The position numbers and the translations under genes are program-made. 59,269 bases of DNA, taken from positions 1-59,269 of the IMG/VR virus record IMGVR_UViG_3300010052_000141. The stretch is one strand, 5' to 3'. Within the stretch, counting starts at the first letter, position 1. The number at the start of each line of letters is the position of its first letter. The stretch comes from a virus (taxonomy: Duplodnaviria > Caudoviricetes). Below are positions 38,034 through 39,630 of the stretch, piece after piece. Below the pieces are notes generated by a model. The model worked only from the letters and a program-made list of their open reading frames with translations, was not told the origin of the DNA and made no database searches.

Positions 38034-38786
38034 ATGTCAAAGAAGCAAGACACTGCAGAAGTCACGGTCCAACCCCTCAAGCGCGCGTCTGTGACACTCC
38101 GGATCATCGGTACTACGGCGCTTTTCCAGAACCGAATGGCCAACAAAGCCAAGCAGCAATTACTTGTTGGAGGCCAGAAGAAAGGGAAGGCCGATCGGGC
38201 ATCGATCAAGCATGATCCGATCCAGGAATTTCGCGACAGCGCGGAAATATTGCCGGCCGGCCCAACTGCCCTTGGACTTCGTGTTGTCGCGGTTAAGGCT
38301 GCAATGGCAACTGCCGCACTCGAAACGCCAGGCCTTACCAAATCGTCGGCGCAACGCTTGCTGTTTATGCCCGGCGATCACGTTCCGCTGTACGGAACGC
38401 CGCAGCTGCGAATGGATGTGGTCCGGTCTGCGGACATCAATCGAACGCCGGATATTCGCTCGCGCTGCTATTTACCGAAGTGGGGCGCCGAAGTGGAGGT
38501 CCATTTCATCACGCCGCAGCTTTCGGTGCAGTCAGTCGTCTCGCTTCTCTGTAACGCAGGTATTTTGATCGGCGTCGGCGACTTTCGACAGGAAAAGGGA
38601 AAGGGCGCGTTTGGCTCCTTCCGGGTGCTTGGCGAGGGTGAGGAGGATCCCGAGTGGGAAGACCTGATTAAGAATCACGGTCGAATGCCACAGCAGGCAG
38701 CGCTAACCGACCCTGAATATGCAGACAAAGACACGGCCGATCTAATGGACTTTTTCCATTCGGAGGTGAAGCGCAGGGCCGCTTAG
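38034..38786 (+). CDS. RAMP/Cas7-like RNA-binding protein (candidate effector of the GGY-NN arrays)
   Basis: N-terminal strand TLRIIGTTAL, AVKAAM helix and C-terminal Gly-rich loop AGILIGVGDFRQEKGKGAFGSFRV; directly followed by the array. Confidence 0.75.
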   Translation: MSKKQDTAEVTVQPLKRASVTLRIIGTTALFQNRMANKAKQQLLVGGQKKGKADRASIKHDPIQEFRDSAEILPAGPTALGLRVVAVKAAMATAALETPGLTKSSAQRLLFMPGDHVPLYGTPQLRMDVVRSADINRTPDIRSRCYLPKWGAEVEVHFITPQLSVQSVVSLLCNAGILIGVGDFRQEKGKGAFGSFRVLGEGEEDPEWEDLIKNHGRMPQQAALTDPEYADKDTADLMDFFHSEVKRRAA

Positions 38787-38796
38787 TGCGGCGTTT

Positions 38797-38912
38797 GGCA
38801 CGGCTGGCGAGGCTAGGAGCGGCATGGTCCGGATTGGAATGGTCGGAATGGTCAGTCATGGCAGGCTTGGCAAGCAATGGCTGGGCGAGGGCAGGCTGGA
38901 TACGGCAGGCGC
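38797..38912 (+). repeat. Non-coding GGY-NN pentamer array 1 (two guide-like blocks)
   Basis: GGCAC GGCT | GGCGA GGCTA GGAGC GGCAT GGTCC GGATT GGAAT GGTC GGAAT GGTCA GTCAT GGCA | GGCTT GGCAA GCAAT GGCTG GGCGA GGGCA GGCTG GATAC GGCA | GGCGC. Confidence 0.9.
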
Positions 38913-38941
38913 GATTTTGCGCATAGAAATGGAGACGACAA

Positions 38942-39463
38942 ATGAGTGATAAAGCAGGGTTTACGAAAGAACTCCGTCAGCAGATCGTTGAAGAATTCTC
39001 GCGACGACACAACGGACTTTATGATCCAGCGCTATTTTTGCGTGAAGTTAAGGAGAGGGGCAAAGAGCACCCCGCATTCGAATGGTTCGAATGGAACAAA
39101 AACAAAGCCGCTCAGGAGCACAATCTTTGGCAAGCTCGCTGCTTTGCCAAGGATTTGCGGATCAACTTTACTGTCGAAGAAGTCGGCCGTAGCGGAGCCG
39201 TTACCGTTCGGTCGACTGAAATGCCAATGGTGTTGAGTCCGACGAGTGGCCGGAGTGACGGCGGCGGTTACGTGTTAACCGATCCTACCAACCCGGCGCA
39301 CCAAGCGGAGCACTGCCACCAAGCCGCGGCAGCGCTTCGATCTTGGTACAAACGTTACCAAGCCGCCGTGATCTACGCAGGCTTTGGCGAGAAGACAATC
39401 GAGTCGATTGCGGAGGCAATGGAGGCGGTCAAGGCTCCAGAGCAAATGCAGGCGGCTGAGTAA
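38942..39463 (+). CDS. Partner protein of the RAMP-like gene
   Basis: HPAFEWFEW...AAQEHNLWQAR motif; lies between the two arrays. Confidence 0.8.
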   Translation: MSDKAGFTKELRQQIVEEFSRRHNGLYDPALFLREVKERGKEHPAFEWFEWNKNKAAQEHNLWQARCFAKDLRINFTVEEVGRSGAVTVRSTEMPMVLSPTSGRSDGGGYVLTDPTNPAHQAEHCHQAAAALRSWYKRYQAAVIYAGFGEKTIESIAEAMEAVKAPEQMQAAE

Positions 39464-39472
39464 ACGCGCGTA

Positions 39473-39585
39473 GGCACGGCAGTCGAGGTACGGACAGGTG
39501 CGGCCTGACTAGGTGTGGATAGGCATGTCAAGGCAGGCGGGGCACGGCCCGTCGTGGTGAGGCCCGGCACGGCACGTTGTGGCAT
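39473..39585 (+). repeat. Non-coding GGY-NN pentamer array 2 (two guide-like blocks)
   Basis: GGCAC GGCA | GTCGA GGTAC GGACA GGTGC GGCCT GACTA GGTGT GGATA GGCAT GTCAA GGCA | GGCGG GGCAC GGCCC GTCGT GGTGA GGCCC GGCAC GGCAC GTTGT GGCAT. Confidence 0.9.
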
Positions 39586-39600
39586 CACCAGGAAAAACGG

Positions 39601-39630
39601 AAAAAGGCCCTTCACTGGGCCTTTTTCTTT
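39601..39630 (+). terminator. Rho-independent terminator, probably bidirectional
   Basis: AAAAAGGCCC-ttcact-GGGCCTTTTT followed by CTTT. Confidence 0.85.

Follow-up and report, generated by a model that had tools for sequence, protein, structure and literature searches.

What is encoded between positions 38034 and 39630 of the virus record IMGVR_UViG_3300010052_000141, where a Cas7-like gene, a partner gene and two runs of GGYNN pentamers follow one another on one strand, and what would the pentamers recognize? The window analyzed here is the entire record, 59 kb (59,269 nucleotides, nt) of a Caudoviricetes virus. A preliminary description of it had proposed a candidate RNA-guided system and had pointed to a likeness to phage VIPR systems; the likeness was correct, and the Cas7-like protein proved directly homologous to the Vipr protein of Escherichia phage SUSP1. 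We consider it highly probable that the locus is a VIPR system of a temperate phage, whose arrays would yield four guides against virion genes of sibling phages whilst sparing the phage's own alleles.

VIPR (Viral Interference Programmable Repeat), an RNA-guided DNA silencer related to CRISPR (clustered regularly interspaced short palindromic repeats), was first described in 2026 (10.64898/2026.04.26.720920, 10.64898/2026.04.26.720927, 10.64898/2026.10.15.759431). In these preprints the systems consist of a lone RAMP protein (Vipr) with an accessory gene (vap) and fall into seven types. Each of their guide RNAs (vrRNAs) is built of 9–16 YNNGG repeats; protein holds the GGY of a repeat, whilst the NN reads DNA, one base being skipped per unit, usually at the wobble position of a codon. 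In "staggered arrays" adjacent vrRNAs overlap by 1 nt, the end of one marking the start of the next (10.64898/2026.04.26.720920, fig. S18 legend). That discovery preprint reports a set of 667 VIPR loci and calls an array where at least four tandem YNNGG/GGYNN units lie next to vipr; in the portion of its text that was searched, neither Bradyrhizobium or other rhizobia nor mycobacteria or Alphaproteobacteria are mentioned.

The protein encoded at 38034–38786 is a Vipr homolog

The open reading frame (ORF) at 38034–38786 on the plus strand encodes 250 amino acids (aa) and includes the glycine-rich loop AGILIGVGDFRQEKGKGAFGSFRV to which the preliminary description had drawn attention; the G-loop GVGDFRQEKGKG occupies residues 180–191. 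A Vipr family profile from a 48-sequence alignment was compared by hhalign with SUSP1 Vipr (the gene product of NC_028808.2, 28474–29061) and aligned over 163 columns (Prob 95.9, E 6.5e-9). In a PDB-wide search with the same profile the sole match was "SUSP1 Vipr protein" (36pp_D, E 1.6e-4). By these sequence comparisons the ORF, a lone Cas7-like RAMP gene, encodes a homolog of the characterized SUSP1 Vipr. Residues R144, D183, F184 and R185 of the window protein align to R138, D177, W178 and R179 of SUSP1, which the cryo-EM preprint (10.64898/2026.04.26.720927) names as G1/G2/Y3 contacts. R144, which falls on the SUSP1 thumb arginine R138, is invariant in the family alignment, as are D183 and R185, whilst residue 184 is F here and W in some relatives; the loop GxGD[FW]RQEKGxG is invariant across all 48 sequences.

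Structure prediction bore out the RAMP/Cas7-like fold that had been suggested for this protein. Its AF2 model (predicted local distance difference test score 85.7, predicted template-modelling score 0.80) gave 27 Foldseek matches at E <= 0.001, the best being Csm3/Cas7 chains of type III and type VII complexes, with 6ifn_F at the top (E 5.6e-5, template-modelling (TM) score about 0.4). An RRM core, a G-loop and a thumb are common to the window Vipr and to the type III Csm3/Cas7 of 6IFN chain F, and by analogy Vipr may likewise polymerize on guide RNA with a fixed periodicity. The two differ in that identity is only 10–14% at that TM score of about 0.4, and in that VIPR has a period of 5 nt with three guide bases hidden per unit, against a period of 6 nt with one base flipped in Csm3/Cas7. 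Unlike a CRISPR locus, the 59-kb window holds no CRISPR-like repeat array (the direct repeats found in it are two families of 2 copies each; its ORFs were not scanned one by one for cas genes), in agreement with the first account of it. The earlier supposition that each subunit binds one GGY and displays NN is what the cryo-EM preprint (10.64898/2026.04.26.720927) reports for SUSP1, and by analogy it may hold for the window protein.

Vipr homologs number 1189 proteins at E <= 0.001, the nearest named ones coming from Bradyrhizobium, Microvirga and Methylobacterium. Neither Vipr nor the accessory protein had a significant match in Pfam or NCBIfam, and in PHROGs both matched families of unknown function only. 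The public gene call for Vipr (P0009) is 216 aa long, 86% of the ORF; we favor the 250-aa start because residues 10–34 are conserved across relatives and a conserved GGAG stands before 38034.

Two arrays are divided into four guide blocks

Segments of ten units (5-nt steps) with at least 7 in-phase GG were sought on both strands of the whole window. Sixteen start positions qualified, all on the plus strand and all within 38791–38864 or 39477–39546, with a maximum of 8; none was found on the minus strand or elsewhere in the 59 kb. Of 100 sequences simulated from a first-order Markov model of the window, 7 attained a maximum of 7 and none a maximum of 8. The exact in-phase GG chains in the window are 8, 4, 4 and 4 units long, within the calling rule of the discovery preprint, whilst Tandem Repeats Finder (TRF) did not call the 5-nt arrays. 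The first array occupies about 111 nt (38797–38907) of the 155-nt intergenic stretch 38787–38941, close to the 115 nt of non-coding periodic sequence first described, and the second lies at 39473–39590, beyond the accessory gene.

Parsed in register, the arrays comprise 42 units, with G at position 1 in 42/42, GG in 34/42 (8/42 lack the second G) and GGY in 27/42. The claim that the first three bases are near-constant is overstated for this window. That the last two bases vary freely was confirmed: 15 of the 16 possible dinucleotides occur at the NN positions of the window, and positions 4–5 are near uniform across 2453 family units from 325 distinct chains. In the same family units position 3 is C in 75% and T in 17%, a bias that is not built in, since position 3 is not part of the definition by which chains were selected.

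Six 4-nt units (GGCT, GGTC and four GGCA), each followed by G, break the register. Array 1 begins with a leader, GGCAC GGCT, at 38797–38805 that ends in the first 4-nt junction; close relatives begin the array with GGCAC GGCA. Guide block 1 (vrRNA 1, 38806–38863) and guide block 2 (vrRNA 2, 38864–38907; 9 units) follow, both ending in GGCA/G, where the slash marks the junction. Array 2 begins with the leader GGCAC GGCA at 39473–39481, as in close relatives, and continues with guide block 3 (vrRNA 3, 39482–39535; 11 units, again ending in GGCA/G) and guide block 4 (vrRNA 4, 39536–39590), which has 10 units plus CACCA and is counted as 10–11 units. All of these elements are on the plus strand. 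The GGTC unit (38841–38844) sits within block 1 and originates from a 9-nt tandem duplication at 38836–38853 detected by TRF, so that block 1 can be read either as 12 units with a register slip or as 8 + 4 units. This duplication is perfect (GGAATGGTC twice), and the register shift falls just past the seven target-matching units of the block.

The proposal that 4-nt units split the arrays into four blocks of 8–11 units held, with corrections to the counts. Family-wide, blocks end in GGCAG, the last G being the first G of the next block (a 1-nt overlap), and the commonest block length from junction to junction is 10 units; in the window there are six of the 4-nt units, and block 1 has 12 units or 8 + 4.

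The association of arrays with the gene was assessed in related loci, of which 97 were fetched and one (L017) was dropped as only 47 residues matched, leaving 96 with duplicates kept. In-phase GG chains of at least 4 units were present within 1.5 kb downstream of vipr on the same strand in 87/96, as had been anticipated for homologs of this gene. Chain density was 3.05 per kb downstream of the gene vs 0.16 per kb elsewhere, and much of the latter consisted of arrays upstream of vipr or farther than 1.5 kb away; four of the nine loci that lack a downstream chain (L091, L093, L094 and L096) have upstream arrays. As a positive control, the same chain scan recovered the published SUSP1 arrays. Close relatives (Vipr 83–87% identical) keep the leader GGCAC GGCA and the frame whilst their NN strings differ, and the degeneracy of their units is similar to that of the window arrays. 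A tail-protein homolog, even a partial one, was nearby in only 3/96 VIPR-bearing loci; the cassette therefore sits in differing phage backbones.

The putative guides match sites in virion genes of sibling phages

Guides were read by the published 1-nt-skip rule as NNx NNx, with the skipped base at codon position 3. In four of four guides the match starts at the first unit after the junction, lies on the coding strand and lets the skip fall on the wobble base of each codon. Of the predicted sites, two lie in the gene of a tail protein, one in that of a 542-aa virion-module protein (ORF 32736–34364) and one in that of a 115-aa protein (ORF 31532–31879). The 1-nt skip with wobble placement was borne out for block 4, with weaker support for blocks 1–3.

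Block 4 units 1–9 decode to G-T-P-V-D/E-P-T-T-V, and GTPVDPTTV occurs in 44 of the 120 tail-protein homologs among the matches listed. The corresponding 9-unit DNA pattern has four exact matches in IMG/VR, three of which lie in tail-gene homologs, in frame and at the same codons. The fourth (L105 4830–4855) falls in a viral contig of 66% GC, within an unrelated open frame of 140 aa that likewise reads GTPVDPTTV; we took it as chance. One of the phages with an exact match in the tail gene, G257, has a complete genome of 57.9 kb bounded by terminal repeats, in which no Vipr was found at E <= 0.001. Against this genome block 4 scores 19/20 when one base is skipped vs 13–15/20 under skips 0, 2 and 3, and the maximum among 200 unit-order shuffles was 16/20.

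Block 3 units 1–9 decode to D/E-T-Q/H-A-L-Y-V-Y-I/M. The peptide DTQALYVYI occurs in 4/120 of the listed tail-protein homologs, and 3 of these 4 also have the block-4 site. Block 2 units 1–7 decode to FNIWEQW, a peptide present in 4/17 homologs of ORF 31532–31879. Block 1 units 1–7 decode to D/E-Y-A-I/M-P-F/L-I/M, and the homologous codons of G257 (DYAMPLI) score 13/14, a value of 13 being reached by 1/200 shuffles. In a peptide-level control on 407 proteins, unit-order shuffles reached the observed score in 0/30 per guide. The 115-aa protein itself (31532–31879) has only 17 homologs in a large protein collection and contains three copies of a W-x-x-W/Y-V/I-D motif (FNIWEAWVD, YAAWLAWVD and FFTWLRYVD).

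The resident genome carries the homologous codons at each site, on the plus strand. The block-4 site in the tail gene (40004–40030) encodes GSPVDPTTI and scores 16/20 with the full 10-unit guide, and the block-3 site in the same gene (40148–40174) encodes DCQALFIYI and scores 15/22 with the full guide. The block-2 site in ORF 31532–31879 (31598–31618) encodes FNIWEAW and scores 12/18 with the full guide, and the block-1 site in ORF 32736–34364 (33045–33065) encodes EYARPFI and scores 12/16 over 8 units. These resident matches alone are near chance and similar to those under other skip rules. At each site the resident alleles differ from the guides at 1–3 guide-read codons; for block 4, 2/18 positions differ in the 9-unit core.

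By the proposed mechanism, the two arrays would be transcribed and cut at GGCA/G junctions into four guide RNAs of about 45–58 nt, the last G of one guide being the first G of the next in the manner of staggered arrays. Vipr protomers would polymerize along each guide, one per 5-nt unit, with GGY buried and NN presented, by analogy with the SUSP1 structures, and the accessory protein may assist. The NN string would then pair with DNA as NNx NNx, skipping 1 nt, and block transcription at the four predicted sites, which are spread over three conserved genes of the virion module in sibling phages, whilst the resident mismatches would spare the carrier. A role in the exclusion of, or competition with, related phages is likely.

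Evidence against the proposed reading and alternative explanations

A number of observations count against this interpretation. Because 15/42 units deviate from GGY and block 1 holds a register slip, some guides may be impaired. The last 1–5 units of each block mismatch the predicted targets, and full-length exact patterns of blocks 3 and 4 found 0 matches each in IMG/VR. The target sites were first located via the resident partial matches, themselves near chance, and blocks 2 and 3 in G257 score no better than shuffles. For block 3, the exact DNA matches to the 9-unit pattern (2 viral and 11 metagenome contigs) all have in-frame stops and no tail homology and were taken as chance, so that its target rests on protein sequences only. 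Self-sparing is not certain, because the resident tail site fits block 4 at 16/20, which equals the 80% target threshold of the discovery preprint. A run search found no RNA sequencing run containing the stretch, and one DNA run with 0.23 of its words.

Two wider searches gave null results. Block 3, allowing up to 3 mismatches, matched 0/5 genomes of related loci and gave one match, no more than chance would give, among 251 genomes from the genus to which G001 belongs. When the window guides were compared with 95 loci, and 128 guides of relatives with the window and 91 loci, skip 1 showed no enrichment relative to skips 0 and 2 (13, 13 and 7 matches at >=85%).

One could suppose that the guides are directed at virion genes of the phage itself, their partial complementarity (12/16 to 16/20) amounting to a tuned self-repression of late genes, for example in lysogeny. 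Two facts would fit this: for every guide the resident genome has a homologous site that is in frame and lies on the coding strand, and block 4 matches at 16/20, exactly the 80% threshold used in 10.64898/2026.04.26.720920. Yet the codons that are mismatched in the resident match the guide in sibling alleles, and the resident scores of blocks 1–3 equal those from other skip rules and from shuffles; moreover, the preprint found no self-targets at >=80% in its sets. We therefore regard self-repression as improbable. Similarly little probability attaches to a decaying relic in which the protein genes are perhaps intact and the arrays degenerate, leaving no working guides. Its signs would be the 27/42 GGY units with 8 lacking a second G, the 9-nt duplication that shifts the register of block 1, and the mismatched last units of every block. 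On the other hand, both ORFs are full length and keep their key residues, position 1 is G in 42/42 units, and block 4 retains an 18/18 match to extant phages; moreover, close relatives are equally degenerate, and the same preprint calls internal degeneracy frequent.

That the periodic stretches are no guide RNAs at all, and represent G-rich sequence that arose by chance, DNA repeats to which a protein binds or short coding ORFs, seems to us barely credible. Small ORFs do overlap array 1 (for example 38786–38926, 46 aa), and GenBank annotates the arrays beside the actinophage homologs as coding sequences (CDSs), but coding sequence does not admit a period of 5 nt. The arrays, moreover, are confined to one strand, have no counterpart elsewhere in the window, are kept beside the gene in 87/96 loci and have free NN positions, and only the published skip rule turns the NN strings into real sites of sibling phages. 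A VIPR system with guides against virion genes of sibling phages remains the reading that we prefer.

The accessory gene belongs to a family shared with actinobacteriophages

The second gene of the locus, at 38942–39463 on the plus strand, encodes the 173-aa protein expected from the preliminary description and is a conserved partner in related loci. It was found in 80/96 of these, on the same strand as the vipr homolog in 80/80 and directly after it in most of the 80, with five weak matches upstream. The partner-family profile showed no relationship to SUSP1 Vap1, the type II accessory protein, by hhalign (Prob 0.5, E 0.12), and a Vap1 relative was ruled out on this result. The same profile matched Donkeykong gp50 (Prob 98.1, E 7.5e-14) and Pipp gp44 (Prob 96.4). 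The AF2 model scored 92.6 in the predicted local distance difference test. Against solved structures the protein had no PDB sequence match and no Foldseek match at E <= 0.001; its best VIA-align hit (Z 4.4) fell on a helical hairpin, and in the Atlas it matched viral hypothetical clusters only. The predicted complex of Vipr and the accessory protein scored 0.00, which is evidence neither for nor against pairing.

Gordonia phage Pipp (genes 42–44) and Mycobacterium phage Donkeykong (genes 48–50) resemble the window in having Vipr homologs of 27–30% identity, the same accessory family and GG arrays of period 5. They differ in that their hosts belong to a different phylum, in that the arrays are annotated as protein-coding and, in Donkeykong, in the position of the array upstream. 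The Pipp array (MN234179.1; L121 2619–2815) lies under hypothetical-protein gene 43, and that of Donkeykong (NC_051648.1; L122 1479–1717) under gene 48, likewise annotated as a hypothetical protein. Both genes are probably guide arrays miscalled as CDSs.

Operon layout and genomic setting

The window encodes an integrase, a large terminase, a portal, a major head protein, a head-closure protein and tail proteins; this gene content marks the carrier as a temperate phage or provirus. Its VIPR operon lies between the head/connector genes and the tail genes, beside a HicB-like gene. This HicB-like antitoxin gene (36434–36661, minus strand; PHROG 497, E 3.5e-16) belongs to a small minus-strand island immediately upstream of the operon. 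The operon itself runs on the plus strand in the order leader, vipr, array 1, vap-like gene, array 2, terminator.

The leader (37915–38033) was examined by alignment of ten relatives and RNAalifold, which over the ~120 nt 5' of the start codon gave 28 pairs, 16 of them with compensatory changes. A long-range helix, in which 37955–37964 pairs with 38017–38026, covers the GGAG ribosome site (38023–38026). We regard the leader as a conserved structured RNA on this covariation, and a function for it may be presumed.

The terminator that had been described beyond the second array corresponds to a hairpin at 39600–39627, flanked by an A-run and a T-run. The terminator scan reports it on the minus strand, and on the plus strand the same stem precedes TTTTTCTTT, so that a bidirectional intrinsic terminator ending the operon is likely. 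No sigma-70-like promoter was found in 37300–39900, Rfam gave no match above the gathering score over 37500–40000, and a megablast of 30000–50000 against phage records returned no match.

Comparison with characterized VIPR systems

With the staggered VIPR systems of the preprints the locus shares a lone Vipr RAMP gene with one accessory gene, GGY/NN pentamer arrays that flank the genes, a phage or provirus carrier, and coding-sequence targets with the skip at the wobble base. Its predicted guides likewise abut with a 1-nt overlap, here read from sequence junctions. It differs from them in its predicted targets, which are virion genes of sibling phages and not satellites or lysis-lysogeny regulators.

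The type II VIPR of SUSP1 (NC_028808.2; PDB 36pp) has a homologous Vipr, in which G-loop D-W/F-R and thumb arginine are conserved, the order vipr then accessory gene with arrays alongside, and a 1-nt skip rule that also fits the window. In contrast, SUSP1 vrRNAs are ~100 nt long with an invariant ~40-nt 3' tail or pseudoknot. The invariant 3' tail of type II (SUSP1 and P. fulva) is absent from the window, where the guides are staggered and the blocks abut by a 1-nt overlap. Vap1 is unrelated to the window accessory protein, the window Vipr has 250 aa with a C-terminal helical extension vs 195 aa in SUSP1, and SUSP1 is a lytic E. coli phage whereas the window phage encodes an integrase.

Discussion

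Since the VIPR class was published in the 2026 preprints, it is not new and this locus opens no new category; its code, the staggering of arrays and the wobble logic have likewise appeared in print. What is added here is the predicted targeting of sibling alleles, an accessory family shared with actinophages, and a conserved leader. The value of the locus is that of an independent natural example beyond the tested E. coli and Pseudomonas systems, which reproduces the 1-nt skip and its wobble placement in a phage with a Vipr whose nearest named relatives come from Bradyrhizobium, and in which the staggered-array junction marks the start of target complementarity in 4/4 guides. The accessory family defined here, without a known fold, is shared with well-studied actinobacteriophages, whose arrays are at present annotated as protein genes.

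The sites point to a rule of self and non-self that would rest on few amino-acid differences in virion genes. As a tentative idea, somewhat short of an even chance in our estimate, VIPR may act in allele-specific kin discrimination among sibling temperate phages, with guides set to common virion-protein alleles and reading codon positions 1 and 2, and with the carrier surviving via 1–3 amino-acid-changing substitutions at those codons. If so, the guides would evolve in step with the alleles of structural proteins, and tail proteins, like others of the virion module, would be under diversifying selection imposed by VIPR.

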